Shown here: one piece after another, positions 24,505 through 59,642 of the stretch
Layout of the letters: the number at the start of each line of letters is the position of its first letter
Position numbering within the stretch: the stretch's first letter is position 1
Assembly: GCA_021813445.1 (NCBI GenBank)
Contig: JAKAKP010000133.1
Span: 12,937-76,936 of the forward strand
Length of the DNA: 64,000 bases
Source of the DNA: Deltaproteobacteria bacterium
GTDB taxonomy: Bacteria; Desulfobacterota; Desulfobaccia; Desulfobaccales; 0-14-0-80-60-11
Reading direction: 5' to 3'
Notes under the pieces: generated by a model
Seen by the model: the letters and a program-made list of their open reading frames with translations, nothing else
Databases searched by the model: none
What the model was told of the DNA's origin: nothing
Translations under genes and position numbers: made by a program

Positions 24505-25980
24505 ATGAAGAAAACTTCTCCAAAAAAAGTTAATGGCCTAGGCTACCGGGATAGTAGTTTTTCCTCAGATCATCATCAGACACAAAAGAATGGTGCGCAC
24601 AACATGGAAGAAATGTTGCAATCCATAAATTTTCTAAGGTTTGTTCTCGACAATGTCTATTCCGGCATCATCGTCTGCAATGAACATAGTCAAATAATTT
24701 TCATGAACAAGGTTTATGCGGAGCTGCTCAAGACAGACCCCCAGGAAGCGGTCGGTAAGAATATTAAAGAATATTTCCCCGGTTCCAGGCTTTCCCATGT
24801 CATCGCCACAGGGATTCCGGAACTGGGCCAGCGCTGTTCTCTGAAAACCGAGGCGGTGTTGCTGGTTAATCGTATTCCTCTTAAATATGACGGCAAAATC
24901 GTGGGAGTAATTTTACAGACGGTACTGCGTGATTATAAGGATTTTACCGATCTCGTGCGCAAACTCAATATGTTGGAAAAGAAAGTTAAACATCACGAGA
25001 TGGCCCTGGAAACGATATTTTCTCCTAAGTATAACTTTGATTCCATTATTGGAGAAAGCCAGCAGATTAAAGAAATAAAACTACTGGCCCAGAAATACGC
25101 CCGGGCAGATTCGCCCATCTTGATTCTTGGCCCCACTGGGACCGGCAAGGAATTATTCGCACATGCCATACATGCTGCCAGCAACCGTAACTTGGGACCG
25201 TTTGTTTGCCTCAACTGCGCCACGGTCCCCAAAGATTTGCTGGAATCGGAACTATTCGGTTATGAAGAAGGTGCCTTCACCGGCGCCAAAAAGGGGGGCA
25301 AGCCCGGTCTCATCGAGCTGGCCCACGGCGGCACGCTGTACCTTGACGAAATCGGAGAACTGCCCCTGGCTGCACAGGCCAAACTCCTAAGAATCATTGA
25401 AGATAAGGTGCTCACCAAGGTCGGCGGCATAAGATCCTCGGAGATCGATTTCCGTCTGATTGCGGCCACGAACCGTGATCTTCAAGAAATGATTCAACGG
25501 GGAGAGTTCCGGCGAGACTTATTTTACCGGCTGAACACCATGATTTTGAATATTCCTCCCCTGGGCAAGAGACCGGAAGATATTCCACTCTTGATTAATC
25601 ACTTCTTGAAAGCCGCAGGCAGACCAGAATGTCGCTTGCATAAAGAGACACAGGAGGCTTTGGGCCATTATCATTGGCCGGGGAATGTCCGAGAGCTGAA
25701 AAATATTATCGAGAGAGCCCTGAGCCTGTGTGAAAAAGATGAATTAAATTTGGAGCACCTGCCGGTGGAAATATTTAAACCGAACTTAACCATAAATATG
25801 TCCGGTAATTCGGACACTTCCCTATCTCAAAAAATGAGTAACTTTGAGAAAACCTTACTTTTGAATGCCTTTCAAGCCGCTCAGGGCAATATGTCTAAGA
25901 CCGCTAAATTACTAGGTATTTCAAGGTCCGTCTTATATGAAAAGTTTCAAAAATATAGCTTAGCTCCTTCCAAGAAATGA
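24505..25980 (+). CDS. Sigma-54-dependent transcriptional activator (PAS + AAA+ + Fis-type HTH)
   Basis: Walker A GPTGTGKE, GAFTGA motif (EEGAFTGAKKGG), and C-terminal HTH (NMSKTAKLLGISRSVLYEK). The true start may be an internal Met (24604). Confidence 0.9.
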   Translation: MKKTSPKKVNGLGYRDSSFSSDHHQTQKNGAHNMEEMLQSINFLRFVLDNVYSGIIVCNEHSQIIFMNKVYAELLKTDPQEAVGKNIKEYFPGSRLSHVIATGIPELGQRCSLKTEAVLLVNRIPLKYDGKIVGVILQTVLRDYKDFTDLVRKLNMLEKKVKHHEMALETIFSPKYNFDSIIGESQQIKEIKLLAQKYARADSPILILGPTGTGKELFAHAIHAASNRNLGPFVCLNCATVPKDLLESELFGYEEGAFTGAKKGGKPGLIELAHGGTLYLDEIGELPLAAQAKLLRIIEDKVLTKVGGIRSSEIDFRLIAATNRDLQEMIQRGEFRRDLFYRLNTMILNIPPLGKRPEDIPLLINHFLKAAGRPECRLHKETQEALGHYHWPGNVRELKNIIERALSLCEKDELNLEHLPVEIFKPNLTINMSGNSDTSLSQKMSNFEKTLLLNAFQAAQGNMSKTAKLLGISRSVLYEKFQKYSLAPSKK

Positions 25981-44016: not shown

Positions 44017-44676
44017 TTATGTATTCGCTAATAAAAGGAATGCATTGACGAGAGAATGAACTGTTATGGAGGCAACTATGCCACTTTTTGAATAAACTAC
44101 TGTGAATATGGCAGAATACAAAAAAATAAAAAAAAGGTTTATATCAAATGTCCCCCAAATTCCATGTGGGATAATAAATAATAAAGAAGACAATATAAAA
44201 GCAAATATATCGCCCCAATCCTCACGTATTATTCCAAAAAAATAACCTCTAAACAGAACTTCTTCTAATGTAGGCCCCCATAATACAACCAAAAATATAT
44301 TTAGATATAAAAAAGGCGTGGGCACATCAAGTATACTTTGTGCGAAAGGTATTTTCTTATCAGAAGTGATCATATTTAAAAAAAATGTAAGCCATGATAG
44401 AATGATTCCTACAATAATGGTCATAACCAAATCTTTTAAATGAGGACTGGCTACAGGAAGTCTCTTTGTTCTATTATAGCAATAAATTATTGCTATAATA
44501 GGAGAAAATGCAGATGAAGACAATATCTCTTTTGTTATTTGTGGAATGCTGGATGATAATTTATATAACATTGGATTTATTAATAGCCAAAGCATTAGAT
44601 GAGCTACTATTAGGCAGGCAAATCCTTCCAGTATTATGATGATATTCTTAATTCTATTATTAAAAATCATTACCAT
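44017..44676 (-). CDS. CPBP-family intramembrane glutamic endopeptidase (Abi / CAAX-protease-like)
   Basis: Motifs EEVLFRG, FIIPHG and HSLVNA in a polytopic, very AT-rich ORF. Start overlaps the Rhs stop by 7 nt. Confidence 0.8.
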   Translation of the reverse strand: MVMIFNNRIKNIIIILEGFACLIVAHLMLWLLINPMLYKLSSSIPQITKEILSSSAFSPIIAIIYCYNRTKRLPVASPHLKDLVMTIIVGIILSWLTFFLNMITSDKKIPFAQSILDVPTPFLYLNIFLVVLWGPTLEEVLFRGYFFGIIREDWGDIFAFILSSLLFIIPHGIWGTFDINLFFIFLYSAIFTVVYSKSGIVASITVHSLVNAFLLLANT

Positions 44677-46859
44677 CCGGCGCCTCCGGAAGGACCGATA
44701 GGTTCTGGAGGAAAACCAGGAGGATTAGGCAGAGAGGGACCGGGTACCGGAGGAAGAAAAGGGAACTGAGCCGGTCTTGTTGGAGGTTGTTGTGGGGGGA
44801 ATGGATTTGCGTAACAAATATCTCTTGGTGTAACATCAGCAGTAGGAGCTAACCAACCTTTTGGAGGAGGTTGAAGAGGATTTAAATTATTCATAGTTGT
44901 TGGGGTTAAACCATTAGGATCAATCATATTCAATGGATTATTCACAGCAAATCTATATAAATTAATTCCGCTTTCTTCTCCCAGCGGGTCCCTCGTCAGC
45001 CACCTTCCCAATGCTGGTACATAAAAACGATAACCATAATAACATAATCCAGTCTTTTCATCATAAGGCTTAGTGGAGAACTGAAATGGCTGTTTAATTG
45101 AATTGGCAGGAACGCGAGGTGCTCCAAATGGGTCGTATTGGTAGGTGGCGGCCACGTTGCCGTTGGGGTCCAGGAGGGCGGTGACGTTCCCCTTGCCGTC
45201 ATAGAGATAAGAGAAATGGACCGCGCCCTGGTAGAGGTCCAGCAGGCCGCCGATGCCCCCCGGCAGGCCCTGGCCCCAGGTGTATTCGCTGATGATGTTA
45301 AAGTTCCGGTCCTGTTCCTGCATGATCTGGAAGCCGTCGTACAGGTAGCGTTTCCAATCGGTAGCTTGGCCATTCAAAGAAACGATTTTCTGTACCAGAA
45401 GATTGCCGACGTAGTTATAACCGGTTCGATAGACATCGCTGCCCACCGTATAGCTGAAGGTGGTGAGGCGGTTGCTGCCGTCATAAACCGCGGTAAAGGG
45501 GTAACCTTGGGGAGTGTAGCCGTTGGTCAGGTTCCCGGAGGCGTCATAGACCAGGTCCGTCACCCCGGAGTTGGTAATGCGGGTGAGGGCATTGACGTTG
45601 TTGTATTCGTAGTTTGTGAGGCTGCTGACATAGGGCGGGGGCGAGGCGGGCTCGGTGGCGGTTTCGCCGGCCCGCAAGTCCTGATCGTTATAGGAATAGG
45701 CGTAACTGCAGACCACCGTGTCCCAAATCCTGGTGGTCATCTGCGTCAGGCGGTTGAGGATGTCATAGTCATAGGTGGTCACCGCGCCGTTGGGCCGGGT
45801 GAGGGTCCGGACCAGGGGGCTGGCCCCGGCATAGCCGTAAATATAAACCTGATCCCCGGCGGTGACGCGGGTGAGCCGGTTCAGGTGGTCATAGGCATAG
45901 GCCACGGGCTGGCCACTGCCCCGGGTCATGAGGGTCCTGCGGCCCAGGGCATCGTATTGATAAGCGACCCGGGTCTCTGGGTGGTTTCTCAGAGTAAGGG
46001 TCAATAGCTGGGAATTGGCATCGTAAGTGCGGTCGAGATACCAATAATCGGTGGAATAAGCAGATGTCTCCCGGCCGAAATTATCATAAAAATAGTAGGT
46101 CGCGGTCCCACCTTCATCCCAAAACCGGGCAAGTTTCCCGAGGTCAGAATAAAGATAATTAGTCTTGATGCCCCGGGCATTGGTCCGGGCCAACAGGTTA
46201 TTGGAAGGATTATTAGCATCGTAACTGAAGGAGTCGAAGGTGCCGTCCGCGTAGGTCTTTTTAATCAGGTTGTTATTGGCGTCGTAATCGAACCTGGTGA
46301 TGTTTCCCTTGGGGTCAGTGATGCTGGCCCGGTTGCCGTTGGCATCGTAAGTAAAGGCGGTGACCCCGCCCGCGGGGTCGGTCACCGCGGTCAGCCGGTT
46401 GGCCTGGTCATAGGCATAAAAGGTGGTCCGGCCCGAACGCTCCGTGATGCTGTCTATCTTGAAAGGACAACAGGAGGAATACTGGTAGCTCTTGTATTTA
46501 TTGTCCGGGTAAGTGATACGGGTCACCTGGTCCAGGTTATTATACTCATAAATCAGGGTCAGGCCGGAGGCGGCCTGCATGGCTTCGCCGAAAGAGGCAT
46601 TGACCATTGGATAGCTCAGATCATGGGTGGGGTAAAGCGGTCCATCCAATTGCCCGGCAGCCATCAGATCTTCGAAGTTGAGGTTCCTGGAAAGGTCTAA
46701 GGCTTTTAGCGAGTATCCTTTGGGATACCCCGGGCTGGCTTCGGCGTTGGCAGCAAACAGGGGTAAGACTATTTGCAGCAGGAAGATTAAGGAGGAGATG
46801 AGGAAAAGTCTATAAGTCCTTTTAACTAATGGAGAATGCGGAGATGAATGGTTCATCAT
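44670..46859 (-). CDS. Rhs/YD-repeat protein with Sec signal peptide and a short proline-rich C-terminal tip
   Basis: Many YD repeats (YDANGNR, YDALGRR, YDHLNRL...). Core end YGYRFYVPALGRWLTRDPLGEESGINLYRFAVNNPLNMIDPNGL. The last 78 aa (44670-44906) are Pro-rich. Confidence 0.85.
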   Translation of the reverse strand: MMNHSSPHSPLVKRTYRLFLISSLIFLLQIVLPLFAANAEASPGYPKGYSLKALDLSRNLNFEDLMAAGQLDGPLYPTHDLSYPMVNASFGEAMQAASGLTLIYEYNNLDQVTRITYPDNKYKSYQYSSCCPFKIDSITERSGRTTFYAYDQANRLTAVTDPAGGVTAFTYDANGNRASITDPKGNITRFDYDANNNLIKKTYADGTFDSFSYDANNPSNNLLARTNARGIKTNYLYSDLGKLARFWDEGGTATYYFYDNFGRETSAYSTDYWYLDRTYDANSQLLTLTLRNHPETRVAYQYDALGRRTLMTRGSGQPVAYAYDHLNRLTRVTAGDQVYIYGYAGASPLVRTLTRPNGAVTTYDYDILNRLTQMTTRIWDTVVCSYAYSYNDQDLRAGETATEPASPPPYVSSLTNYEYNNVNALTRITNSGVTDLVYDASGNLTNGYTPQGYPFTAVYDGSNRLTTFSYTVGSDVYRTGYNYVGNLLVQKIVSLNGQATDWKRYLYDGFQIMQEQDRNFNIISEYTWGQGLPGGIGGLLDLYQGAVHFSYLYDGKGNVTALLDPNGNVAATYQYDPFGAPRVPANSIKQPFQFSTKPYDEKTGLCYYGYRFYVPALGRWLTRDPLGEESGINLYRFAVNNPLNMIDPNGLTPTTMNNLNPLQPPPKGWLAPTADVTPRDICYANPFPPQQPPTRPAQFPFLPPVPGPSLPNPPGFPPEPIGPSGGAGW

Positions 46860-47509
46860 TACTCTCCAATAATTTTATTCAATTATTATGAAAACCGGTT
46901 TTTGCTAATGAAAATATGCTGTTGACCGGTTAAAGGTTGGAAACTAGAAGCTGTTGCAAACCCTTTAAAATTAGCCCCAAAAGTCATCCTTGGCGAAGCG
47001 AAGAATCCAGGTGTTTCAAATACCTATATTCTTCGAGCCGCACAGGATGGCAAAAAAATGGATCTGCAATAATGCTAACCTTTGGCGGGGTAACGAGAAT
47101 TGCCGTTTTGGACTGTTTGGACGGTGAAAATGTCGCTGATCAGTTTAACTGGCGATATTTCTTTACCAGTATATCGGAATTCATCCCTAAAAAATAAATT
47201 TCCGGGTGTTCATGCCTCTAAGCCGCACCAGTAATGATTATCCACTTCCTTCGTCACGACGTGGCCAAGAAAATTTTAGTATTTTTTAGCACCTACTAAC
47301 CAAGAAAAGAGTAAAGTTTGGGAATCGTTTCCTGTGGGCTGATGAAGCAGCATCTTTCAATGAATGGAGGGTGTTGATTTCTTGCCATCCTGGAGACTTA
47401 TCAGTGAAGTGGAGAAAATTGCGGGTATGATCCTCATCTGCGAATGAATCACATCATTAAAGAGGAAAGTTTGTTAGATAAATCTTTGATATTTAAACCC
47501 TCTATTCTA

Positions 47510-48322
47510 TTAAAGATCACCAAAAGGAAGTGCTTTCACCTCCGGCGCTAAAGGCAGCCGGACTTCGCCGGGATGAATGACGTACCCGGGGGCGGAATGG
47601 TCTTGCAGGTCTTTCTGGAAGGCCGTAAGGTGACGTGCCATGGCCGGTCGAGGGGTTGCATAGAGTTTAACCTCCAGAGGGATTAAGCGGCCGCCTGCTG
47701 CCACCACAATATCCACTTCAGCGCCGGCCGCAGTGCGCCAAAAGTACACCTGGGGTTCCTGGCCCCGGTGGACTATGGTCTTGATGATCTCCATAAGCAC
47801 CCCGGTTTTGAAGATGGCCCCGCCCATGGGCCCGGTGGCGGCATGTTCCGGGTCTCTGAGGCCGGCCAGGTGGCAAAGGATGCCCACGTCTGAAAAATAG
47901 ACCTTGGGTGACTTGACCAGGCGCTTTCCCACATTGGCGAAGTATGGACGCAGGATGATTACCTGGAAGGTAGCTTCCAATACCGTCAGCCAAGCCTTGG
48001 CGGTATTGAGAGCGACCCCGAGGTCCCTGGCCAATTCGGCCAGGTTAAGGAGTTGGGCGCTCCTGGCGGCCAGGGCTCGCAGGAAATTCTGGAACAGGGG
48101 CGCCTTTTCACTTTGGGCTTGCTGTTGAATGGCGGGATATTCCACTTCCAGCCAGTTGCTAACCTCCTGGGAGTTCTGCTCCAGTGCCCGGCGCACAGGT
48201 TTTTGTGGAGTAAAACCCCAGCGCTTTAAATATCGACCGGAGGTTGATAATGACACCCGAAGGCCAAACTTGCGCTGAATCAATTTGGCTACAGCTTCTC
48301 GGGTCCAAAGATAGAAAGGCAA
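47510..48322 (-). pseudogene. Chimeric relic: IS630-family transposase N-terminal fragment fused to a DUF4143 ATPase C-terminal fragment
   Basis: LWTREAVAKLIQRKFGLRVSLSTSGRYLKRWGFTPQKP is IS630-like wHTH. SPKVYFSDVGILCHLAG...EVDIVV...IPLEVK is DUF4143-like. Neither part is complete. Confidence 0.6.
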
Positions 48323-48366: not shown

Positions 48367-48498
48367 CCTAAGCACCCAAAGAGATTTCAGGAGGTTTAGA
48401 TAGGACCAAAGCGCCATCGTTACTTACCTGGCAGGCCGTATATTCCTTGGCCACCAGGTTCATTATATCTTCTGCGCGGAAAAGGATGTGAAAGGTCA
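48367..48498 (-). pseudogene. Relic of a GT20 trehalose-6-phosphate synthase (otsA) gene
   Basis: The minus strand reads MTFHILFRAEDIMNLVAKEYTACQVSNDGALVLSKPPEISLGA*. This parallels [27 protein letters not shown] in the intact OtsA domain at 57396-59642. Confidence 0.45.
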
Positions 48499-48499
48499 T

Positions 48500-49723
48500 C
48501 TATAATTCAATGATCCGACTGGGTGGATTTTCCAAGAGGGTCACCAGGGTCAGGTAGTCCCGGATATGCCGGGTTATGAGAAAGTGCTGGCGGACGAATT
48601 CCCGGGCGATCTGGCCCATGCGCCGGGCCATTTCCGGACGATGCAAAAGATAACGGATACGAAAAGCGCAGCCTTCCGGGGAATGGACCAGAAAACCGGT
48701 GTTGTAATCCTGCAATTGGAGAACAATCCCCCCGGCGGCTCCGCCGATCACCGGCTTTCCTTTCCACATGGCTTCGGTGACCGTTAGTCCGAAGCCCTCC
48801 CGGGTGGATTTTTGGACGATGATGTCCGCGGCCCGTTGCAAGGCGTTAACCTCGTGATGGGCGTCCGGCGGCAGGAGCAGGATCTGGATATCCGGCTCCC
48901 CATCGGCCGCTGCCATTACTTCGGCAAAGATCCGGGGACCTTCCGGGTCATCGGTGGCCTCGCCGCCGGCCAACACCAGCTTACAGGGAGTATGCCGCCG
49001 AACCAGGCGGAAGGCCTGGATTACCCCCAGCGGGTCCTTGAAGGAATCGAAGCGGGATACTTGCAAAATTATGGGCTTATCCCGGTCGATCCCCAGACGG
49101 TATAACACTGTCTGAATTTCTTCCGGAGTCAAGTCCCGGTTTTTTTCGCTGAAGGGGTCGATGGAAGGCCGGATAAGATATTGAGGGTGCGGCAGATTTT
49201 GGGCGAATTGGGACATGGAAAAGACCGAGGCTTCATACTGGCTCACTATTTCCCGCAGAAATCTCCATACCTGAAGATTGGGACGGGATACGTCGATGTG
49301 GCAGCGCCAGATCCAGTGGTTGGCCCGGTCCCGCATCTCCTCAATCAGGAAGGCCGGCTGGGGGTCGTGCACCAGGACAAAATCAACCTCCCAGTTGAAC
49401 CGCCGGGCGTTCTCCCGGTTGATCTCCCGGTAATGGTCCAGCATCTCCGGAGAGATGTTAACCTTAAAGCCTTGCAGAGCGTTATGAAATGCCTTGGTGA
49501 CCTCAAAGAAATCCTGGTCGCCGTGGATCACCTCCCAACTGGTGTCCATGCCCAACTGATTCAATAGGGGTACGGCCCGGGAAAGAATCTCCGCCACCCC
49601 ACCGCCGCTGCGGGTGGAATTAATATGGACAAAATGCCGGGGCCCCAATCGCTCTGCCAGACGGTGGAGCTGGCCGATTACTTCCGGACCCACCAGTGCA
49701 GCGTAATCATTCAGGCTGATCAC
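48500..49723 (-). CDS. treT: TreT-type trehalose glycosyltransferring synthase (GT4)
   Basis: FVHINSTRSGGGVAEIL, FHNALQG, VLVHDPQP, WRCHID, PSIDPFSEKN, QVSRFD and REGFGLTVTEAMWKGKPVIGG closely parallel archaeal TreT. Confidence 0.75.
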   Translation of the reverse strand: MISLNDYAALVGPEVIGQLHRLAERLGPRHFVHINSTRSGGGVAEILSRAVPLLNQLGMDTSWEVIHGDQDFFEVTKAFHNALQGFKVNISPEMLDHYREINRENARRFNWEVDFVLVHDPQPAFLIEEMRDRANHWIWRCHIDVSRPNLQVWRFLREIVSQYEASVFSMSQFAQNLPHPQYLIRPSIDPFSEKNRDLTPEEIQTVLYRLGIDRDKPIILQVSRFDSFKDPLGVIQAFRLVRRHTPCKLVLAGGEATDDPEGPRIFAEVMAAADGEPDIQILLLPPDAHHEVNALQRAADIIVQKSTREGFGLTVTEAMWKGKPVIGGAAGGIVLQLQDYNTGFLVHSPEGCAFRIRYLLHRPEMARRMGQIAREFVRQHFLITRHIRDYLTLVTLLENPPSRIIEL

Positions 49724-50399
49724 AGACTTCTCCCATATGCTGATTAATCAAGCTCACCAGGGTCTCCCGAATCTCCTTCAAGCTGTAAAAGTAAATATCC
49801 AGATCTCTAATAGCCCGCACCAAATCAGGCAGGTCAAAGTTATTTTCAATCCAGAAGGAAAAGTCATCGGCCTTCCTTACCCCCAGGCGCCAGCGGGCCT
49901 CGAAAAAGTGGTAGTACAGAGAATCCAGCCCCACTTTTCCCAGGGCCACACAGAGTTCTTCGAGGGTCTGGGCGCTGATTTCGGAACGGATCACTACCGT
50001 GGAGGCCTGGCAAAAATGGATTTCAAATCCCGATCTGGCCCAGGGAATAGTGGGCAGATCCCAGAGATACTCCTCCAAGACGTCCACTGCCGCCTGGCGA
50101 ACCTCGCCCATAGTTTCGTATTCAAACGGGTCGAAAGAACTAAGCTTTTCGGCCAGGGTGCTATCCTGCAGGGCGTTGGCGGCCCAGTGGGCCAGATCAT
50201 TAGGGTATTCCACCGCGGGAGGACTGGGGGCCAACCGCGATTGGATCAGATGGTAAAAGAGCACCGATTCATCCAGAACCCGAATGGCCTCCACCAACTC
50301 CCTGAGGTTCATCGCCTTCCTGCCGATGGGCATGGGCATCAAAAAGCACTCACGGAACCAGAAAGGATTTTCAGCCACTTGATTTAAAATATTTCCCAT
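49707..50399 (-). CDS. Conserved hypothetical protein, possibly DUF5752-like
   Basis: Clean 230-aa ORF overlapping both otsB (29 nt) and treT (17 nt). The family assignment is from memory only. Confidence 0.5.
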   Translation of the reverse strand: MGNILNQVAENPFWFRECFLMPMPIGRKAMNLRELVEAIRVLDESVLFYHLIQSRLAPSPPAVEYPNDLAHWAANALQDSTLAEKLSSFDPFEYETMGEVRQAAVDVLEEYLWDLPTIPWARSGFEIHFCQASTVVIRSEISAQTLEELCVALGKVGLDSLYYHFFEARWRLGVRKADDFSFWIENNFDLPDLVRAIRDLDIYFYSLKEIRETLVSLINQHMGEVCDQPE

Positions 50400-51189
50400 T
50401 GCGGTCCTCCAGGGGGAAAGCTAAGGCATTTAAAAAATGTCGCACCGCTTCAGGATCGGGGAGGAAGTGGGATGCCGCGGTTTTACTGCCCGGGTGCCCC
50501 ACTTTTATGGTCAGCCCCTGGCCTTGCAATATGCGAAAGGCACTTTCGTCGGTAATATCGTCGCCTAAATATATTGGAAAATATCTGGAAAATGAAGGTA
50601 ATGACAATATTTCATTTATTGCTGCACCCTTACTGATTCCTTGAGGTAACATTTCCAACACTTTTTTCCCAGCCAGGAGTTGAAAGCGTTTCTCCGAGCG
50701 CACCTGCTCCTGCCACCTGTTTAATATCGCCAAAAATTCATGTAGATACTCTTCGGGCAATTGCCGGTAGTGGAGCGCAAAACCTAAGGGCTTGTCCTCA
50801 ATCCACCAACCCGGAAAGGTCTGCAACCTCGCCTCCAGCCGGCTGCGCCAGTGCAATAGGTCGTCTTTATCTGCGGCTACCACTTGCTGTGAATGGAGGC
50901 AAGGAGATATGAATGCTTCTCCGCCGTGAGATCCAAGAAAATTCAGTCCCGGGACAGGCAGCATCTCTTGTAATTCCCATAAGGGACGGCCAGAAATCAC
51001 CATTGCCTTCAAGTCCGCCCGAACCGCCAGCCGGTTCAGCAACTCTATTAGCTCCGGAGTAGGCCGGGCCAACTCCGGACGTAAAGCGATTTCCACCAGG
51101 GTACCATCATAGTCCAAAAAGAGAAGCAAAGGCCGCCCCCGTCGCCTTGCTTGTATCGTAGACTTAAGAAGTGCGTGAAAGTCGGTCAT
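50371..51189 (-). CDS. otsB: Trehalose-6-phosphate phosphatase (HAD)
   Basis: LLLFLDYDGTLVEI (DxDGT), SGRPL and LGDDITDE motifs. Confidence 0.85.
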   Translation of the reverse strand: MTDFHALLKSTIQARRRGRPLLLFLDYDGTLVEIALRPELARPTPELIELLNRLAVRADLKAMVISGRPLWELQEMLPVPGLNFLGSHGGEAFISPCLHSQQVVAADKDDLLHWRSRLEARLQTFPGWWIEDKPLGFALHYRQLPEEYLHEFLAILNRWQEQVRSEKRFQLLAGKKVLEMLPQGISKGAAINEILSLPSFSRYFPIYLGDDITDESAFRILQGQGLTIKVGHPGSKTAASHFLPDPEAVRHFLNALAFPLEDRNGKYFKSSG

Positions 51190-51268: not shown

Positions 51269-52636
51269 TCACTTTTCCTCCGGCTCCGGCTCTTTTGTTT
51301 CCATCTCTTTCAGGCGACGGTACAGGGTGGCCAGGCTGATGCCCAGGAGCCGGGCCGCCAGTTCCTTGTCTCCATCCGTTTTTTTCAGGGTTTGCAGAAT
51401 GGCCAGGCGCTCGATTTCTTCCATGGAGGAGCCCACGGGGATGGTGATTTGATCATCCGCTAGGGAATGGCGCATGATGTCATCAGGCAGGTCTTCGAGC
51501 TGCACCATATTGCCTTCGCACAGGGCCACGGCCCGCTCCACCACGTTCTGCAACTCCCGCACGTTTCCCGGCCAGGAGTAGTTCTTCAGCGCGGCCAGAG
51601 CCTCCTGGCTGAAGCCCATGGCTGGCCGGTCGTTCTCCAGGCAGAACTTGTCCAGAAAGTGCAGGGCCAGGAGCGAAATGTCTTCTTTCCGCTCCCGCAG
51701 CGCGGGTATGGGCAGGTGGATGACGTTCAGGCGGTAGAAGAGGTCCTTGCGGAAACGTCCCTCGGCCACCGCGGCCTCCAAATCCATGTTGCTGGCGGCG
51801 ATGACCCGGACGTCCACCTTCAGGGTCTGGGTCCCCCCTACTCGCTCGAATTCCCCCTCCTGAAGGACCCGCAGGAATTTTACTTGGGTGGCCGGGGGCA
51901 TCTCGCTGATTTCATCCAGAAAAATGGTGCCCCCGTCCGCCAGTTCGAAGCGGCCTTTGCGCTGCTGGGTGGCCCCGGTGAAGGCCCCCTTTTCGTGGCC
52001 GAAGAGCTCGGATTCGATGAGCCCTTCCGGCAAAGCCCCGCAGTTTAGTTTCACCAGGGGCTTGTCCCGGCGGGGGCTCTGGTAGTGGATGGCTTCGGCC
52101 ACCAGTTCCTTGCCCACGCCGCTCTCCCCGGAAAGCAGCACCGTGCTCTTCAAGGGCGCCACCTGGTTCACCACGTGCAGGACCTTGAGGAGAGCGGCTC
52201 CCCGGCCGATGAGGCGGCCCGTAGGGCCCCGCTCCTGGAGGGCCTGGCGCAGCCGCTGATTTTCCACCAGGAGTTGCTGGGTCTCCAGGGCCTTGGTCAC
52301 CACCTTGCGCAGTTCGTGCATGCGGAAATCCTTGGTGATGAAGTCGTAAATCCCCTGCTTGAGCGCAGACACCGCTTCGTCCACGGTGGCGTGGCCGGAA
52401 ATCATAATGGCGATGGTCTCTGGTCTGAGGATGCGCAAGGCCCCGAAGAGTTCGGTGCCGGTCATGTCCGGGAGCTTCAAATCGATGATGGCCAGGTCCA
52501 CGGCGTGACGCCGCACCTCGTCCAGGGCCGCCACCCCGGTGCCCGCGGTGTGCAGCTCATGGCCCATCTTTTTCAGGCCGGACTCCAGGGCCTCCCGGGT
52601 GGGCGCGTCGTCGTCGACAACCAGAATGACACTCAT
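51269..52636 (-). CDS. NtrC-family sigma-54-dependent response regulator
   Basis: Receiver domain (ILVVDDD...DLAIIDLKLPDMTG), AAA+ domain (GESGVGKE, GAFTGA) and HTH (AARLLGISLATLYRRL). Start at internal Met (52636). Confidence 0.9.
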   Translation of the reverse strand: MSVILVVDDDAPTREALESGLKKMGHELHTAGTGVAALDEVRRHAVDLAIIDLKLPDMTGTELFGALRILRPETIAIMISGHATVDEAVSALKQGIYDFITKDFRMHELRKVVTKALETQQLLVENQRLRQALQERGPTGRLIGRGAALLKVLHVVNQVAPLKSTVLLSGESGVGKELVAEAIHYQSPRRDKPLVKLNCGALPEGLIESELFGHEKGAFTGATQQRKGRFELADGGTIFLDEISEMPPATQVKFLRVLQEGEFERVGGTQTLKVDVRVIAASNMDLEAAVAEGRFRKDLFYRLNVIHLPIPALRERKEDISLLALHFLDKFCLENDRPAMGFSQEALAALKNYSWPGNVRELQNVVERAVALCEGNMVQLEDLPDDIMRHSLADDQITIPVGSSMEEIERLAILQTLKKTDGDKELAARLLGISLATLYRRLKEMETKEPEPEEK

Positions 52637-52769
52637 AAGAGCAGTTTTTTTATACCGGTATTCGATTGGTATCTTAATTGAGAAGATACGATTAACGGAG
52701 AAGCGGCGCAACTACCTGATGCGGCAACCAAATAGCTGCGCCGTGGTCCTGATGTTGACAACCAGTGAG

Positions 52770-53012
52770 TTATTTCTTTTCCGGGCTGGGCTTGGCCGGC
52801 GCGGGTTGAGTAGGCGCGGCCGGAGGAGCCGCGGGTTTGGGGGCGCCAGGCTTGGCCTCCGGCTTAGCCGCGGGCGCCGCCTCTTTCTTGGCCGGGGCCG
52901 CGGTTTGAGCCGCGGGTTTTTGGGCCTTGGCGGGTTCCTCTTGCTTGCCGCAGGCCACTACCAGGAGAAGCCCCAGACAGACTATTCCCAAGAGCAAAGC
53001 TAAACGTTTCAT
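52770..53012 (-). CDS. Small Pro/Ala/Lys-rich lipoprotein
   Basis: MKRLALLLGIVCLGLLLVVAC lipobox followed by a low-complexity PAAK-rich tail. Start taken at the internal Met with RBS gaggaggg. Confidence 0.55.
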   Translation of the reverse strand: MKRLALLLGIVCLGLLLVVACGKQEEPAKAQKPAAQTAAPAKKEAAPAAKPEAKPGAPKPAAPPAAPTQPAPAKPSPEKK

Positions 53013-53128
53013 AAAACATCCCTCCTCAGGTTTTATTGGGGCCAGGTCGCCGGTGCCGCATGGACCTGGCCTTGAATCTCCGCGGGTTAATGAGCGCTCG
53101 TTTATTGGCAGTGGAGACCAGTCCAGAT
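53013..53128 (-). repeat. Conserved intergenic block downstream of an SH3b gene (copy 1)
   Basis: Shares GAATGAATC...CACTGCCAATAArCGAG...CATTA...GCGG...GGCCAGG...CTGAGGAGGGAT with 53804-53922. Confidence 0.6.
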
Positions 53129-53803
53129 TCATTCCCCCCACACCAGATCTTCCCTGACCCAGCCGATCACTTCATTTTCCCAATAGTAACCGACCTTCAC
53201 CCATCTACCTTTTTCGGCAAAAAGTTTGTAGATCTCGCCTTTGGAAGCCTGCTTGACCACCGGCCCCTTCAAACCGGGTACTTTTCTGATATTGGCGTTC
53301 TCCACCGACACCACCACGGTTTTGATCGTGGAAACCAAGGGTTTGTAGACCCAACCGGCATTATGTTTGTAGTCAGTGACATATACCCAGTCATCTTTCT
53401 GCTTTTCCACTTTGATGGGATCCCCCTGGAAGACCTGGAAAAGAATCTCGGACTTCAAGTTGGGTTTAGCCCGTACGTTAGCCCGCTCTTTGCCGATGCT
53501 CATCATGGCGACCGGCGTGTTTCTATGAGCGGCTGGCCCTTTGCCGGGACTCTTCATGGAGACTGGTTGGCTTTGAGGGGCGGCCGGCTCTTTGGTCTCG
53601 CAATTATCCAGGGGACGCGGAGTTTCCAACATGGGGGGCAGCGGCGGTGGTTCCACCTCTCGTTGGGCCCAGGCGCCTTTATGGCTGAGGAGGAAAAATC
53701 CCATAGTTGCTATAATTATTAATTTAGTCAGCCAATTCTTCCCCAGGGGGAGCGCCTGGAGCGGCAGGCGGACCATTCCCGAGAGCAGAGCTATGCATTT
53801 CAC
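53129..53803 (-). CDS. Exported protein with two SH3b-like domains (paralog 1)
   Basis: GKERANVRAKPNLKSEILFQV...DDWVYV and ENANIRKVPGLKGPVV...GRWVKVGYYWENEVIGWVREDLVWGE. GTG start with RBS. Confidence 0.7.
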   Translation of the reverse strand: MKCIALLSGMVRLPLQALPLGKNWLTKLIIIATMGFFLLSHKGAWAQREVEPPPLPPMLETPRPLDNCETKEPAAPQSQPVSMKSPGKGPAAHRNTPVAMMSIGKERANVRAKPNLKSEILFQVFQGDPIKVEKQKDDWVYVTDYKHNAGWVYKPLVSTIKTVVVSVENANIRKVPGLKGPVVKQASKGEIYKLFAEKGRWVKVGYYWENEVIGWVREDLVWGE

Positions 53804-53922
53804 AAGAGAATCCCTCCTCAGAGTTTCTATCGTAGTTCAGGTTATCGGCTGCGGGAGCCTGGCCCAGAAGCCCCGCAGCTAATGGGTACTCGCTTATTGG
53901 CAGTGCTGGCCAAGCCCGGGAT
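53804..53922 (-). repeat. Conserved intergenic block downstream of an SH3b gene (copy 2)
   Basis: See 53013-53128. Contains the 8-bp stem gctgcggg/cccgcagc. Confidence 0.6.
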
Positions 53923-54369
53923 TCATTCTCCCCACACCATGTCACTTCTGACCCAGCCGATCTCCTTGTTTTCCAGGTAAAAACCGATTTTTACCCACTG
54001 CCCCTTTTCATCAAAGAGTTTATAGATATTGCCGTGTTTGACCTGGTCCACCACTTTATAATTCAGGCCGGGGCCTTGACGGATATTCACTAGATCCTCG
54101 AGCACCAGAACGGTTTGGATATTCCTGTTGATTAGGGGCTGGTAAACCCAGCCGGTATCGCTCTCATAATCTTTGATTTCTACCCAGGAGCCCTTGGTTT
54201 GTGTCACCTCTACCGGGTATCCGAAGGGAACCTGAAAAAGGACTTCGGCTTTGAGGCTGGGAGCGTTGCGGACATTGACATTTTCCTTGCCAATGCTGGC
54301 CATGTAGGCTGAGGCGGGTTCAAGCAGAATGACCATCCAGATAATAGTTAGAGACAAGACTCTCAGCAT
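53923..54369 (-). CDS. Exported protein with two SH3b-like domains (paralog 2)
   Basis: Its C-terminus ...GQWVKIGFYLENKEIGWVRSDMVWGE is nearly the same as paralog 1. Has a signal peptide. Confidence 0.7.
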   Translation of the reverse strand: MLRVLSLTIIWMVILLEPASAYMASIGKENVNVRNAPSLKAEVLFQVPFGYPVEVTQTKGSWVEIKDYESDTGWVYQPLINRNIQTVLVLEDLVNIRQGPGLNYKVVDQVKHGNIYKLFDEKGQWVKIGFYLENKEIGWVRSDMVWGE

Positions 54370-54450
54370 AAGCGTCCTCCTTATGGGAAAATGCTAACCT
54401 CCAAGGTTGGGTAAGGCTGCCTGCCGGTTAACGATCTGTTGAAGTTGCAC
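54370..54450 (-). repeat. Promoter/leader cassette, copy A
   Basis: Minus strand: CAACAGATCGTTAACCGGCAGGCAGCCTTACCCAACCTTGGAGG...TTTTCCCATAAGGAGGACGCTTATG. The ATG is the SH3b gene start. Confidence 0.6.
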
Positions 54451-54466
54451 AAGGTCTTCTATTTAC

Positions 54467-55465
54467 CTAAAAACGGGTATAGGACCCTTCGATCTTGGGT
54501 CGTTTAATCCATCGATGGAAATGGAGACTGGTTGAGGTGACTGCAAAACCGGTTTTGAAAGTTATCCGTAAGGCAGGGTAGTTGTTCGCCAGCGTGCGCA
54601 CTCCCACGTACTGTACTCCTTGCTGGGCCATCCTCTGAAGAGCTGCTCGATTCAGACAGGCACCCAATCCCCGATTTCGATTATCGGGTCTCACTCCGAT
54701 AAAGTCGAGACTCCCCGTCTTTTTGCCCACCAGTTGGCAGAAGGTCTCGTTTGTCTTGCTGATGATGAATCCCTGGACTGCACCGTGGCCTCGAGCGACG
54801 AGCGTCGTGAATTGAGATTGATCGAAGCAATTATCCACCAGCTTCCTGTAGAGCGTGCGAGCCAGATCTGGGTCGATCAAGGGGTCGCAGGCGAACCTGT
54901 TATGCACATGAGTGGATTCGACTATTTCAAGCACCTGTTTGCGATCGGCGCGGCTGCATTCAGCGATCTCAATGTCTGCCGGCGGATCAAACGGCTCGTC
55001 CCGCCTGAGCTCCTGGCCCAGGAAAGCCTCGGTTCCCACGTATCTGAAGCCGGCAGCCTCCAGTGCCTGAGCTGCATATACGTCATCGGCCGCTATTCGG
55101 CAGTCCAGGAAATCAACCTCCTGGAGCTCTTCTATCACGTACCGTAGCAGCCGCGCTCGCACCAGAGACCCTTCGAAGCCAGCCAGCAGATGGGGAACCG
55201 CGTACATCTTCAGACCGAAATGCTCACTCATCCAAGGGAGGGATTTCAAAGCGATCAGTCCAGTGAGTTTTCCGTTCGCCTTCAGGCAGATGCTTTGCGT
55301 GTCCGGTGACTTAAGAGTGGTTTGAAGGTAGTCGGCCATGCCTTCTTTGGATACCTTCATGCTTTTGAGCTGGAAATCTTTGTGAGGGTATTCCTGGAAG
55401 AGACGGCGCACTTCTTCGTCTCGGGAACCATCGAGCGGTGAGAACATCAGCTGGCTCATCGACAT
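54467..55465 (-). CDS. Tandem-GNAT N-acetyltransferase
   Basis: Two acetyltransferase-like halves. The second carries RNRGLGACLNRAALQRMAQQG (Q/RxxGxG/A motif). Confidence 0.65.
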   Translation of the reverse strand: MSMSQLMFSPLDGSRDEEVRRLFQEYPHKDFQLKSMKVSKEGMADYLQTTLKSPDTQSICLKANGKLTGLIALKSLPWMSEHFGLKMYAVPHLLAGFEGSLVRARLLRYVIEELQEVDFLDCRIAADDVYAAQALEAAGFRYVGTEAFLGQELRRDEPFDPPADIEIAECSRADRKQVLEIVESTHVHNRFACDPLIDPDLARTLYRKLVDNCFDQSQFTTLVARGHGAVQGFIISKTNETFCQLVGKKTGSLDFIGVRPDNRNRGLGACLNRAALQRMAQQGVQYVGVRTLANNYPALRITFKTGFAVTSTSLHFHRWIKRPKIEGSYTRF

Positions 55466-55467
55466 GA

Positions 55468-56658
55468 CTAATTCTTATCCTCTATAAGGTCTATTCTCAG
55501 TTTCGCTTCCCAATGCGTTGTTTTTAAAGGTATTTTCGGCTTCCACCTCTGGTAAGGAACCAGATCCGGACCAGGAGACCTGATCAGGGGAATGCCGGTG
55601 GGCGTGACTGACGTGGACATCCACCCCGGGCCAGGGACATAGAGCACGGTGAAAAAATGGCCGAACCGCCCTGCCGTGAGGCAGGGTATGCCTCGCGCCC
55701 TCAGGAAGGCACATTCCAGGGGAGCCGTATCCGGACAGGCTCCTGAATGCCGCTTCAGGGTTTCATCCACGTCCTGATACATGAGGTCGAGATCGGAATA
55801 GACCATTTTCCCACCGAAATAAGCAGCGCGTTTGCGCTTATCATAGGCCACGTTCCTTTTGACGAATTTCGCCAAGCGCCAGTACTCTTTGCGGGCATCA
55901 GGTGGCCCAGGTTCTCCCCGGGCAGCCCAGGCTTGAGCGGCAGGGAGGTCGGGGTCGATTTTATGGCCCGGTTCCAGGAAGGGCTGCACTGCCCGCGGGA
56001 TTTCAGTACCGATGGGCTTTCCTGAGAGCCACAGGTCATGGTCCAGGATCTCAGCCATGTTCACGTCGTAGCGGAACCAAAAGGTGAACTTGATCGACTC
56101 ACCCTGGCACACATTTTCCAACCGTGCCCTGAGCCACCGGTTCCCTGCCGCATCGACCGTCATGTTCTGTGAGCACGCCGGCTTCACCACCTGATCGGAA
56201 TACACGAGTTTCTTGCCGAATCCCTCCCGCGGGGCAGTAATTTGCAGCTCCAGAGGGCCCATGTATTCCTGGGCCTCAACCTCGAATCCGACTCGATAGA
56301 CCCCGGCCAGGGCAAAATGCTCGAGTATGCTGCCGGATAAGTGTGACGGTAGAGGGCCTGCCCAGATCCACTTCCCCAGACAGCCGGCACATACCACACG
56401 CTCCAGTCCTAATACAGACTCAGGGTTTCTATCTGCAGGCACGAATCCTTTCTCCGCCAGTATCGCCAGATCCTCGAAGGTCAGGGGGCGGTCGCTTTTC
56501 ACCAGGACCAGGACCTTTAGACCGGGTCTGCGGCTGGCTATCTTCTCCCAATCAATCTGGGAAGCTGCACTGGAAGCCGGCGCAGCCGCGCCAGGGGCGG
56601 AGAAGCAGACTACAAGTGCGGCAATCAAAAGGAGGCGGTATGTCAGGGGCTTTTTCAT
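55468..56658 (-). CDS. Exported transglutaminase-like (papain-fold) domain protein
   Basis: Signal peptide. SGACPDTAPLECAFLRARGIPC...GHFFTVLYVPGPGW resembles the Cys/His transglutaminase core. Start at MKKPL (56658). Confidence 0.5.
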   Translation of the reverse strand: MKKPLTYRLLLIAALVVCFSAPGAAAPASSAASQIDWEKIASRRPGLKVLVLVKSDRPLTFEDLAILAEKGFVPADRNPESVLGLERVVCAGCLGKWIWAGPLPSHLSGSILEHFALAGVYRVGFEVEAQEYMGPLELQITAPREGFGKKLVYSDQVVKPACSQNMTVDAAGNRWLRARLENVCQGESIKFTFWFRYDVNMAEILDHDLWLSGKPIGTEIPRAVQPFLEPGHKIDPDLPAAQAWAARGEPGPPDARKEYWRLAKFVKRNVAYDKRKRAAYFGGKMVYSDLDLMYQDVDETLKRHSGACPDTAPLECAFLRARGIPCLTAGRFGHFFTVLYVPGPGWMSTSVTPTGIPLIRSPGPDLVPYQRWKPKIPLKTTHWEAKLRIDLIEDKN

Positions 56659-56683
56659 CAGATTCAACGGCAAGTTTTTCTCC

Positions 56684-56818
56684 GCATAAGTGTCCCCCTA
56701 GTGAGAAAATCCCAATCCTTCCCAGGGTTGGGTAAGACTGTCTATCGGTCTGTTAACGATGGTGCCCGGGGAAATGCAGAACTGCAGCGCCCAGCCTGGA
56801 TTGCAGACTGTTACTCAG
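56684..56818 (-). repeat. Promoter/leader cassette, copy B
   Basis: Shares the core CAGTCTTACCCAACCCTGGGAAGG...TTTTCTCACTAGGGGGACACTTATG and the distal block AACAGTCTGCAATCCAGGCTGGGC with copy C. Confidence 0.6.
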
Positions 56819-57035
56819 TATCCCTTCTAGGACCTTCTATTGATAGAAGAGACCCGGCCACAGTCCTCACATTTTCACAAATTGCATCAGCCTTCGCTAA
56901 AATGGTTCTCTAAGCCAACTACCCGATGCCTATGTCTTGCATCAACGATGACCGACTTGTTAATATGAATGATTCGTTTTGGTTCTCGACCCGAAAGTCG
57001 AAATGCGAACGGCGAGTGGAGAAACTACCGGACTG

Positions 57036-57350
57036 CTACAGGGGGATACCACCGGAACTGCTTCGAAAGTAGCATTTGATTATTGGAAGAGGACTTTCAA
57101 TCTCAACTGAGACTGATTGGGTTAGCCAGCCCTGGGGGATATCAGGCAGTCTTGCCGATGTGATCCAAACCGAGGATCCGACTTTGCCCGAGCTATCGGG
57201 AGAAAAGGTTTGATAAATTGTTCCTTGGCAAAGAAGATTCGCAGGCCTTCCCTTGGCAAGCAACCCGTCTTGGGCCAGATCGACTAGCAGAAAAATTACC
57301 CACAAGAGCATTATTATCTGCTTCAATCTGTTTCTGGCTCGCGGTGACAT
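57036..57350 (-). CDS. Small membrane-anchored hypothetical protein
   Basis: One N-terminal TM helix (IIMLLWVIFLLVDL). Lies 45 nt downstream of the OtsA fusion. No recognisable motif. Confidence 0.4.
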   Translation of the reverse strand: MSPRARNRLKQIIMLLWVIFLLVDLAQDGLLAKGRPANLLCQGTIYQTFSPDSSGKVGSSVWITSARLPDIPQGWLTQSVSVEIESPLPIIKCYFRSSSGGIPL

Positions 57351-57395: not shown

Positions 57396-59642
57396 TCATT
57401 CCACTCCCTCCGCAGGACGCAGGCGGGCCAGGGCTGCTATTAAATCCCCCGCCCACCGGTAGATATTGTTCTCCCTTATCACTGTGCGCATGCGCCCCAT
57501 GCGTTCGCTTTTCTCTCGCGGTTCCATTACCAGGGAACGATGGAGAGCGTCTGCCATTTCTTCGATATCGTAGGGATTTATTATCAGGGCGTCGGTGAGT
57601 TCCCTGGAGGCGCCCGTGAACTGGCTCAAGATTAAAACGCCGTCATCGTCATCGCGGACGGAGACGAATTCCTTGGCCACCAGGTTCATCCCGTCATGCA
57701 GGGAAGTGACCATGCAGACGTCGGCCGCCTTGTAGAAAGGATAGATTTCCTCATGGCTGTGATGGGCCTTTAAAAATAGGATCGGGTTCCACTCCCTGGT
57801 CTGAAATCGCCAGTTTATGCTGTCTGCGGTCTCCTCCACTTCGGCCATGAAGTCGCGGTATTTCTTAATATGGGTGCGGCTGGGAGCCCCCAACTCCACG
57901 AAGGTGAATCGCCCGATGAATTCAGGATATTTTTCCAGAAAGCGTTCCACTGCCCGGAAGCGCTCCGGGATGCCTTTGGTGTAGTCGATACGGTCCACTC
58001 CCACGCCCAGGTACCTGGCCTGCACTCCTCTTTCCTTGAGAAGTTGTTGCCTCAGCGGCAGGCTTTCCCTCTTGGCGGCTTCCCTGTCCGTGGAATTTTC
58101 AAAGCTCACGCTGATCGGGAAGGGTTTTACCAGGGTCGTATGGCCGCTCCGGCTAACCGAAAATTGTTCCCAATCTGTCTTGGACTCCAGGAAACGGTCC
58201 ACTGTGTCCAGGAAATTATTACAGTGAAACTGTATGTGGAAACCCAAGAGGTCGGCTCCGAGCATGCCCATCAGGATCTCCTGCTGCCAGGGGCAGATGG
58301 CAAATGCTTCCGGATTGGGCCAGGGTATATGCCAGAATAGCGCCACCCGGGCATCGGGGCGCTTCTCCTTCACCAGCAGCGGCAACAGCGCCAGGTGGTA
58401 ATCCTGGATCAGCACCAGGGGGGCTTCCTCTTCGGCGATTTCTTGCAGCAGGTTTTCCGCGAACTTCTCATTTACCTTCTGGTAGTTAATCCAGTCATCT
58501 AGACGAAAAATCGGACGGTTATGGGCAATATGGCAAAGCGGCCATAGACCCTCATTTGAGAACCCGTAATAGTAGCCCTTTTCCTCCTCTTTTGAAAGCC
58601 AAACTCTCTTTAAAGTATATTCCGGCTTTTCGGGGGGCACGCGCACCTTGTCATTGGCGTCCACGGTTTCCCGGTCGGCTTCTCCGCCGCCGTGGGCGAG
58701 CCAGAGTCCGTCGCAGATGCGCATCACCGGGTCGAGGGCGGTGACTAGGCCGCCGGCGGGCACAATGCATTTCACGGTATGTCCTTCGTTGATATGCATG
58801 TAAGGCTCGCGGTTGGATGCCAAAAACAGTTTCTTGCCGCTAAGTTCGACGCTCATTTGCTCCTTCAGCCGGCGGGCGGTCCAAAGCGAAGCGGTGCTGA
58901 AACGCCGTCTGGCCTCTGCATCCGCTCTAGCGCGGGCCACGGCAAGGCTCTTGGCCATGTTCGTCGCCTCGTTTACCAGAGAGGCGAGGATGTCTCCCCG
59001 GGGAAATGGGGCTGGCTGGCCGCCCTTGCCTTTACCGGTCCTGGCCTCCCTCATCCATTGGGCGATTTGGGCGATGGGGCCGGTGATACTCCACCTGACT
59101 ACGACCACGGTGATGAGAACAATAAGAAAGGTATAAATGAGAAACCTGAGCAGGTTATACTTCCAGATCTCTCTTAATCTGACGCCGATATATGTGGCAT
59201 CAGTGAAGAGGGCCATGGCTCCGGTAATCTTCCCGTCCGTCTTGAGAGGCAGGACATAGGCGTAAATGTCTTTCCCCTGGATATCTATTAATTCGCCTAA
59301 AGGCCTATCCTTCAAAATAGCTTTGACCGCAGCCGGAAAAGGTTGGGGGGTCAGCGACTTGAGTTCCGGCGTGGCGGTTATCATCTTCCCGTCCGTGCCG
59401 AATACGGCAACACCTTCGAACCTCTCATACTTTACGACCAGCCGGTTCAGCCATTCGGGGAGCCCTACCCCCTCCAAGGAGGAAACGGATTCCTTGAGGC
59501 TGTCCGCAAGAATCGCCGCCCTACGATCCAGGTCAACAGTCATGCGGCTTTTTTCCTGGTTCACTTGGTAATATGAAAGTATTGCCGTGACGATCGCCAC
59601 TACAATTACCAGGGACAACAGCAGGCGAAAGGTGATTTTCAT
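57396..59642 (-). CDS. otsA: Membrane sensor-HAMP / trehalose-6-phosphate synthase (GT20, OtsA) fusion
   Basis: TM1, a ~140-aa periplasmic segment, TM2 and a HAMP-like linker ([17 protein letters not shown]...). Then the GT20 core ([40 protein letters not shown]). Confidence 0.8.

Follow-up and report, generated by a model that had tools for sequence, protein, structure and literature searches.

A predicted Cache-HAMP membrane sensor in one reading frame with an OtsA-type trehalose-6-phosphate synthase

A stretch of 64,000 nucleotides from contig JAKAKP010000133.1 (assembly GCA_021813445.1, Deltaproteobacteria bacterium), hereafter termed the window, harbors a gene whose product is predicted to join a membrane-spanning sensor module to an enzyme of trehalose synthesis. 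The complete coding sequence occupies positions 57396-59642 of the minus strand and, according to the list of open reading frames (ORFs), specifies 748 amino acids from an ATG start. Sequence analysis confirmed that a first transmembrane segment (TM1), a Cache domain, a second transmembrane segment (TM2), a HAMP domain, a short coiled coil with a linker helix and a complete glycosyltransferase domain of family GT20 are arranged in one frame, and this protein is referred to as the fusion.

Domain architecture of the fusion

The enzyme half is constructed by residues 272-740 (57423-58829 on the minus strand, as for all parts of the gene given below). Pfam Glyco_transf_20 (PF00982) matched residues 286-739 with E = 1.4e-119 and 400.4 bits against a cut-off of 32.5, covering profile positions 20-472 of 473, which bears out the original prediction of a complete OtsA domain preceded by about 270 residues. 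Among the NCBIfam models, OtsA (TIGR02400) was the best monofunctional match at 428.7 bits, compared with 304.2 bits for GgpS, and solved structures of trehalose-6-phosphate synthase (TPS) matched this part at E = 1e-80 to 1e-71. The domain is 35% identical to Escherichia coli OtsA, and residues G298, Y358, W367, D414, H438, R551, K556, R589, D650 and E658 match substrate-binding or catalytic positions of the E. coli enzyme, which comprise Arg9, Gly22, Tyr76, Trp85, Asp130, His154, Arg262, Lys267, Arg300, Asp361 and Glu369. The counterpart of Arg9 was read by eye as R278 in an SNR motif, whose arginine binds the acceptor phosphate in OtsA. The catalytic site is intact by these comparisons, and the domain is very probably of the OtsA type. 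Four cysteines (C370, C450, C474 and C643) occur without exception in the fusion family and have no counterpart in E. coli OtsA; the idea that they are specific to the fusion was ruled out, as three of them also occur in the soluble sister OtsA of a related locus (L086, discussed below), and on this alignment they are specific to the wider clade.

In front of the enzyme, a 19-residue Kyte-Doolittle scan detected exactly two peaks of transmembrane grade in the whole protein, approximately 138 residues apart. TM1 (residues 3-25, 59568-59636) reaches 2.62 over 19 residues and lies within a model helix of residues 2-55, and TM2 (residues 164-183, 59094-59153) reaches 2.73 and terminates in a near-invariant VVRW motif. 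The two hydrophobic strings that had been quoted in the original prediction, as borders of an extracytoplasmic part of about 140 residues, fall inside these segments. The charges of K2 and R6 ahead of TM1 and of R183 at the end of TM2 fit an N-in topology, which would place the GT20 domain in the cytoplasm, the compartment of its nucleotide-sugar substrates.

An AlphaFold (AF2) model of residues 1-272 was obtained with a mean predicted local distance difference test (pLDDT) score of 85.6. The helix of residues 2-55 that includes TM1 is followed in this model by an alpha/beta core (residues 61-148), an unbroken helix (residues 150-202) running from the C-terminus of the Cache domain through TM2 into the HAMP segment AS1, a 14-residue connector, and a helix of residues 217-250. 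The top PDB match of the model in Foldseek was the full-length model of the sensor kinase WalK, 9a5d_A (E = 1.3e-9, TMq 0.71, 268 columns), and weak resemblance of the N-terminus to sensor regions of histidine kinases was also observed with NCBIfam (E = 0.03-0.05). Neither a DHp (HisKA) nor an HATPase_c domain of Pfam or NCBIfam was found in the fusion protein, in which GT20 comes after HAMP; with these domains absent, the protein is not, as judged from its domain content, a histidine kinase.

The extracytoplasmic part, residues 26-163 (59154-59567), is predicted to form a single Cache domain with the PDC fold. The family profile matched the extracellular Cache structures of WalK (5is1, 4ywz and 7dud) at E = 2e-4 to 2e-3 and KinD weakly, while the AF2 model, in which a long N-terminal helix is followed by an antiparallel sheet flanked by helices between the two transmembrane helices, matched crystal structures of the sensor domains of WalK, KinD, DctB, CitA and PctC at E = 2e-6 to 1e-3 (Foldseek). 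The Cache core of the model is placed with pLDDT values of about 90-95. When 61 family members were scanned singly against Pfam, sCache_3_2 was found in 21 (best E = 9.3e-7), dCache_3 in 10 and Cache_WalK in 6, and in orthologue P0191 the sCache_3_2 score of 29.7 bits exceeds the curated cut-off of 28.4 on the same chain as GT20. Variants of the sensor are also carried on a constant HAMP-GT20 part, namely a tandem Cache in P0019 (913 residues) and an enlarged domain in P0121 (693 residues, partial); such duplication and enlargement over a constant output is typical of signalling receptors.

The HAMP domain, which is known from other proteins as a parallel dimeric four-helix bundle, is assigned to residues 184-240 (58923-59093) and divided into AS1 (184-202), a connector (203-216) and AS2 (217 to about 240), as the model has a helix up to residue 202, a loop at 203-216 and a helix from 217 after TM2. 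A profile restricted to the segment after TM2 and built from 43 diverse members (profile A3) retrieved HAMP entries of Af1503 as its top 12 PDB matches (E = 0.008-0.12), and the alignment spans the whole AS1-connector-AS2 unit. In orthologue P0133, Pfam PF00672 matched residues 188-236, that is, profile positions 5-52 of 53, with 26.5 bits against a cut-off of 25 and with GT20 in the same chain, and a Pfam HAMP match at E <= 0.1 was obtained for 12 of the 61 members scanned singly. The hallmark positions are kept as well: the AS1 proline P189 is invariant, G203 at the end of AS1 occurs in 35 of 43 members, and D217 (33 of 43), which belongs to an RGD motif, sits at the acidic position of DExG. 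Hydrophobic heptad a/d positions with 3-4 spacing were recognised in AS1 (186, 190, 193, 197, 200) and in AS2 (219, 222, 226, 229, 233, 236, 240). R183 and W184 are near-invariant, and a juxtamembrane motif of 11 residues is almost unchanged in the homologues.

Between HAMP and the enzyme (58830-58922), AS2 runs on as an alanine-rich coiled coil (residues 241-250) to about residue 250; after a break of 4-5 residues it is succeeded by the conserved helix SLWTAxRLKEHM (residues 254-267), with W254, T255 and L259 as invariant residues. The model places the helices here at residues 218-250 and 256-267. Strand beta-1 with the SNR motif starts four residues past the SLWTAxRLKEHM helix. The same W..ERLK helix also opens the soluble sister OtsA proteins of L086 and related loci, which indicates that the sensor was grafted on the enzyme's native N-terminal helix at about residues 250-254. 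Between the end of TM2 and SNREP, all 44 measured loci, which come from different phyla, have 89-94 residues, and such a fixed linker length is a requirement of rigid mechanical coupling and not of a passive tether.

Family, spread and conservation

The fusion is shared by a large family. A search with residues 1-272 retrieved homologues that run on in frame into GT20, and a profile of the N-terminal module matched 1,873 cluster representatives at E <= 1e-3, including 215 that reached E <= 1e-30. A protein identical to that of the window has been called as a single gene on 10 public contigs. The phylogenetic distribution, which the original prediction had named as a check, was approached by a pattern scan with one genome per species that yielded 198 confirmed fusion loci, of which 80 were kept and 70 are complete. 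These loci are distributed over at least seven phyla, with scan labels of Nitrospirota/Thermodesulfovibrionia, Desulfobacterota (Syntrophorhabdus, Syntrophus, Deferrimicrobium), Zixibacteria, Ignavibacteriota, Bacteroidota, Elusimicrobiota and Acidobacteriota. In each of the 70 complete loci the fusion is encoded by one ORF of 741-803 residues; otsB lies directly downstream of it in 62 of them, and in 45 of the 80 loci the fusion is adjoined, upstream or downstream, by a gene pair for DUF5752 and TreT, the trehalose glycosyltransferring synthase.

Comparison with four relatives revealed purifying selection on every domain, with ratios of nonsynonymous to synonymous substitution rates (dN/dS) of 0.05-0.09 for GT20, 0.05-0.33 for HAMP and 0.15-0.24 for Cache; the last is the least conserved part of the protein, with a mean pairwise identity of 0.49. 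In a neighbor-joining tree without support values, all 47 GT20 domains of the fusion type group together in a single clade, sister to that of soluble OtsA. Since the fusion-type domains are monophyletic in this tree, they probably go back to a single old fusion event, and the fusion appears from the sequences to be ancient and not to have been formed in this genome.

The only cultured carrier found was Syntrophorhabdus aromaticivorans UI (NZ_KI867150.1; locus L046, 7902-9794), which harbors an in-frame variant. TM1, Cache, TM2, HAMP, the linker and the first ~35 residues of GT20 run there into an OtsB domain, and the GT20 body of about 430 residues is missing. This variant could be a natural chimera of sensor, HAMP and phosphatase, a deletion pseudogene, or the outcome of an assembly collapse.

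The conventional trehalose operon and its relic

A second trehalose locus is located on the same strand of the window. It comprises otsB (50371-51189; Pfam Trehalose_PPase, E = 6.6e-35), a DUF5752 gene (49707-50399; Pfam DUF5752, E = 3.3e-64) and treT (48500-49723; Pfam TreT_GT1, E = 6.8e-58, with Glycos_transf_1). The otsB product of this operon shares 27-34% identity with its counterparts encoded after the fusion in relatives, the latter sharing 44-59% with one another, and this divergence marks the operon as a separate trehalose locus. In all related loci in which upstream DNA is present (L005-L165), the DUF5752 gene immediately precedes treT, in most cases with an overlap of a few bases, and its product is probably an obligate partner of TreT; no literature on DUF5752 was found in full-text searches of papers and preprints.

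Past the stop codon of treT, the minus strand reads ...EDIMNLVAKEYTACQVSNDGALVLSK... and retains about 25 codons of a sensor-less otsA at 48395-48469, recognised by tblastn, Pfam GT20 and DNA alignment to relatives. This relic reads DIMNLVAKEYTACQVSNDGALVLSK and corresponds to Pfam GT20 positions 382-405 (E = 8.6e-5, under the gathering score); over 25 residues it is 52% identical to the GT20 domain of the fusion (tblastn). The attempt to type it by its peptide failed, as the peptide is equally similar to fusion-type GT20 domains and to E. coli OtsA, and the type was settled by synteny and DNA alignment. In a metagenome scan with the TreT of the window, close relatives of the conventional locus were found, among which L086 is 93% identical in TreT, 88% in DUF5752 and 76% in OtsB. 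Their gene order is otsB-DUF5752-treT-GT20, the GT20 gene starting 125-430 bp past treT and being about 50% identical to the catalytic domain of the fusion. It lacks the sensor module in L086, L087, L091, L095, L099, L101, L102, L104 and L106, and in the close relatives this intact sensor-less otsA occupies the exact position of the relic. At the DNA level, the relic agrees with the conventional otsA of L086 at 87% over 38 nt, of L095 at 79% over 62 nt and of L087 at 76% over 62 nt. An exact match of 22 nt between the relic (48402-48463) and the fusion (57668-57689; nt 1954-1975 of the coding sequence) was also observed at the MNLVAKE motif, which could stem from a common choice of codons for this invariant motif or from gene conversion over a short tract.

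Next to the relic, a chimeric ORF at 47510-48322 on the minus strand combines a transposase-type winged-helix fragment (HTH_33) with DUF4143 (Pfam). Its DUF4143 part (47435-47854) is 84% identical to positions 9563-9991 of L086 and is inverted relative to treT. Read from these alignments, the ORF marks a rearrangement that removed most of the conventional otsA, and the relic is the remnant of a conventional soluble otsA destroyed by it. The claim of the original prediction that an otsA relic lies beside otsB and treT was thus substantiated. Its further proposal that the fusion replaced the conventional gene is correct in a loose sense, inasmuch as the conventional otsA has been lost here; the fusion, however, belongs to an old family that normally has an otsB of its own, which is the gene missing here. 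Both the window fusion and its closest relative (L006, 92% identical), which shows a gap similar to that of the window, are without the usual adjacent otsB, whereas L007 (82% identical) has it directly after the fusion. A search of the 720 bp that follow the fusion recovered no remnant of an otsB native to it. The nearest otsB in the window is that of the conventional operon, 6.2 kb downstream on the same strand and of the other lineage. The two loci are now complementary within the window, and the fusion presumably relies on the otsB of the conventional operon 6 kb off. A GT20-like N-terminus noted in the OtsB of L037 proved to be an artefact, in which an alternative frame is open over homologous DNA.

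The ~6 kb between fusion and otsB (51269-57350 on the minus strand) contain genes for a sigma-54 response regulator, two SH3-domain proteins, a GNAT acetyltransferase and a transglutaminase-like protein with a signal peptide. Because this regulator lies between fusion and otsB, matches to a sigma-54 promoter were sought, but they occurred at chance level (38 versus 33 +/- 6) and the idea was dropped. A second sigma-54-type activator is encoded at 25045-25953 on the plus strand and is a paralogue of the response regulator at 51269-52711 (42% identity over 307 residues, tblastn). Near the decayed operon, positions 44670-46859 of the minus strand encode a protein of 729 residues that has a signal peptide and a proline-rich tail and contains many YD/RHS-type repeats.

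Putative receptor control of trehalose synthesis and known systems

The domain anatomy, by analogy with sensor kinases, argues for direct control by a signal, and it is on balance probable that the activity of trehalose 6-phosphate (T6P) synthase is governed through the Cache-HAMP module. The more far-reaching reading is that a HAMP-coupled transmembrane receptor directly gates a GT-B glycosyltransferase of primary metabolism, so that an extracytoplasmic cue would turn on trehalose synthesis within seconds and would need no kinase, second messenger or transcription; the chances that this is the first recognised case of such gating appear to us evenly balanced. The fusion would act as a dimeric receptor-enzyme of the inner membrane, in which a stimulus received by the Cache domain or by the membrane would move TM2 and switch the dimeric HAMP bundle. 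The coiled-coil extension and the native N-terminal helix might then relay the HAMP shift to the N-terminal Rossmann domain of each GT-B protomer. GT-B glycosyltransferases work by domain closure, and the relayed shift might alter acceptor binding or this closure and hence the rate of T6P synthesis, again with no transcription involved, after which OtsB would convert T6P to trehalose. Candidate stimuli are a small ligand in the periplasm and a perturbation of the envelope or of osmotic conditions. An osmotic or envelope signal, as voiced in the original prediction, is a guess from the role of trehalose, and a small ligand fits the Cache fold, which often binds small ligands, equally well.

Several observations weigh against such receptor control. 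The HAMP-like linker and the Cache/PDC domain that the original prediction had proposed or suggested to search for were recovered above Pfam cut-offs in P0133 and P0191, respectively, and by the Af1503 and WalK matches, whereas the N-terminus of the window protein gave no Pfam HAMP or Cache match at E <= 1 within the full protein, nor at E <= 0.1 when searched alone; with the window protein below the Pfam thresholds, the identity of both domains rests on orthologues, profiles and structure prediction. The PDB matches of the HAMP profile are marginal (E ~ 0.01), though to HAMP alone, and residues 200-250 have pLDDT values of 44-58 in the monomer model, where HAMP is placed with low confidence. 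The predicted break at residues 251-255 could decouple HAMP from the enzyme. The conserved residues of the Cache domain (R74, G77, G85, Y129, P132, G141 and D148) look mainly structural, and none could be identified as ligand-binding. The OtsA score, finally, lies below the equivalog cut-off of NCBIfam (428.7 versus 564.85 bits), so that OtsA substrate specificity is not proven by it.

Part of this evidence would suit a module that serves as a membrane anchor and dimerisation scaffold, which would keep T6P synthesis at the inner membrane, for instance near a transporter or an envelope process, and relay no signal: there is no candidate that can be named as ligand or stimulus, the predicted break after AS2 could uncouple HAMP from the catalytic domain, and Cache is the least conserved part. 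A plain anchor, however, needs no folded Cache domain under purifying selection, and the HAMP hallmark residues, the heptads, the near-invariant juxtamembrane motif and the length-locked linker would all be superfluous for it, while the duplicated or expanded sensors of P0019 and P0121 over a constant HAMP-GT20 are receptor-like; anchoring is rather unlikely for these reasons. A sugar phosphate other than T6P, for instance glucosylglycerol phosphate, might also be made by GT20, or its T6P might act chiefly as a regulatory metabolite rather than as the precursor of a bulk osmolyte, and either could hold alongside the other readings. The score under the OtsA cut-off, the additional match to GgpS and the independent trehalose route that TreT provides in the same neighborhoods speak for a deviation of this sort, which we nonetheless regard as improbable, given that the OtsA score far exceeds that of GgpS, that the glucose-6-phosphate and UDP-glucose residues of E. 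coli OtsA are all kept, and that a Trehalose_PPase gene directly follows in most complete loci.

The supposition that two products are involved, through mis-joined genes or an internal start, had been raised in the original prediction as a possible refutation and can be considered highly improbable; the internal start would be M263 and would give a soluble OtsA. The ATG of M263 is preceded by CTGAAGGAGCAA, which contains a Shine-Dalgarno look-alike (AAGGAG), and P0012 and P0013 resemble stand-alone N-terminal proteins of 218 residues. The latter were rejected, as the split traces to a long-read contig (L005) whose homopolymer frameshifts also split DUF5752, and the ORF is continuous in all complete loci. 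M263 was rejected as a start because it is not conserved: 18 of 45 loci have Val, Leu or Ile in its place, frequently encoded by non-start codons, a Shine-Dalgarno-like sequence precedes it in 21 of 45 loci only and is not enriched there, with a spacing of 3 nt and no codon preference, and M263 is a hydrophobic helix position. The purifying selection on the N-terminus likewise speaks against a separate product.

If receptor control of the fusion were true, cells would have wired an external sensor straight to the enzyme that makes a stress protectant, which would constitute a new class of HAMP output, a GT-B glycosyltransferase, and a new logic of osmolyte control. The control of trehalose synthesis in bacteria is largely transcriptional, as exemplified by the rpoS- and osmotically induced otsBA of E. 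coli, and the HAMP relay has been studied almost entirely in kinases, chemoreceptors and cyclases; the output domain would surprise a specialist in signalling. A receptor-OtsA would offer structural biologists a simple read-out of HAMP, as UDP release or trehalose, and synthetic biologists a modular switch from sensor to metabolite. The family, which is spread over many phyla of anaerobic sediment and groundwater and is abundant in uncultured Nitrospirota, Desulfobacterota, Ignavibacteriota, Elusimicrobiota and Acidobacteriota, may shape the stress survival of subsurface communities. Across the family, the public names are merely "trehalose-6-phosphate synthase" with the sensor half unannotated, and several hundred database proteins of that name are herewith flagged. 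Although the sequences are common in databases, their architecture has been neither annotated nor studied, and full-text searches of papers and preprints turned up no description of a Cache/HAMP-OtsA.

Among known enzymes, all solved and characterised OtsA/TPS proteins are, to our knowledge, soluble. OtsA and Tps1 (1GZ5/1UQT of E. coli, 5JIJ of M. thermoresistibile and the fungal Tps1 5HUT) share with the fusion the complete GT20 domain, the substrate residues and the linkage to otsB, but consist of about 455-500 residues, whereas the fusion has 270 extra N-terminal residues that are predicted to cross the membrane twice. The soluble OtsA of the otsB-DUF5752-treT-otsA operons (L086, L087, L091, L095 and others) comes closest, with a catalytic domain of about 50% identity and the common SNREPY motif and W..(E/D)(R/S)LK helix; it differs in being devoid of transmembrane, Cache and HAMP segments and in starting ~25 residues before strand beta-1. 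Post-translational control of a GT20 enzyme, as proposed for the fusion, has precedents in the glucosylglycerol-phosphate synthase GgpS of Synechocystis, which is activated by salt through ionic release from nucleic acid, and in plant TPS1, whose soluble N-terminal extension is auto-inhibitory. Both mechanisms are cytoplasmic and involve neither a membrane receptor nor HAMP, unlike the fusion, and the N-terminal extensions of other TPS proteins, such as the auto-inhibitory domain of plant TPS1 and the secretion signal of RipTPS, are unrelated to its sensor module.

On the signalling side, kinases of the WalK (YycG) type resemble the N-terminal 270 residues in order, size and predicted fold; they continue, however, with a cytoplasmic PAS domain and DHp and ATPase domains and have a partner response regulator, none of which goes with the fusion, whose HAMP leads into a GT-B glycosyltransferase. 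Receptor enzymes with HAMP, among them the mycobacterial HAMP adenylyl cyclases (Rv3645), HAMP-GGDEF/EAL proteins and HAMP-PP2C phosphatases, likewise unite a transmembrane sensor, HAMP and a catalytic domain on one polypeptide. Their outputs make second messengers or act on phosphoproteins, in contrast with the fusion, whose predicted output is a glycosyltransferase of primary metabolism and whose product would be the precursor of a stress protectant.

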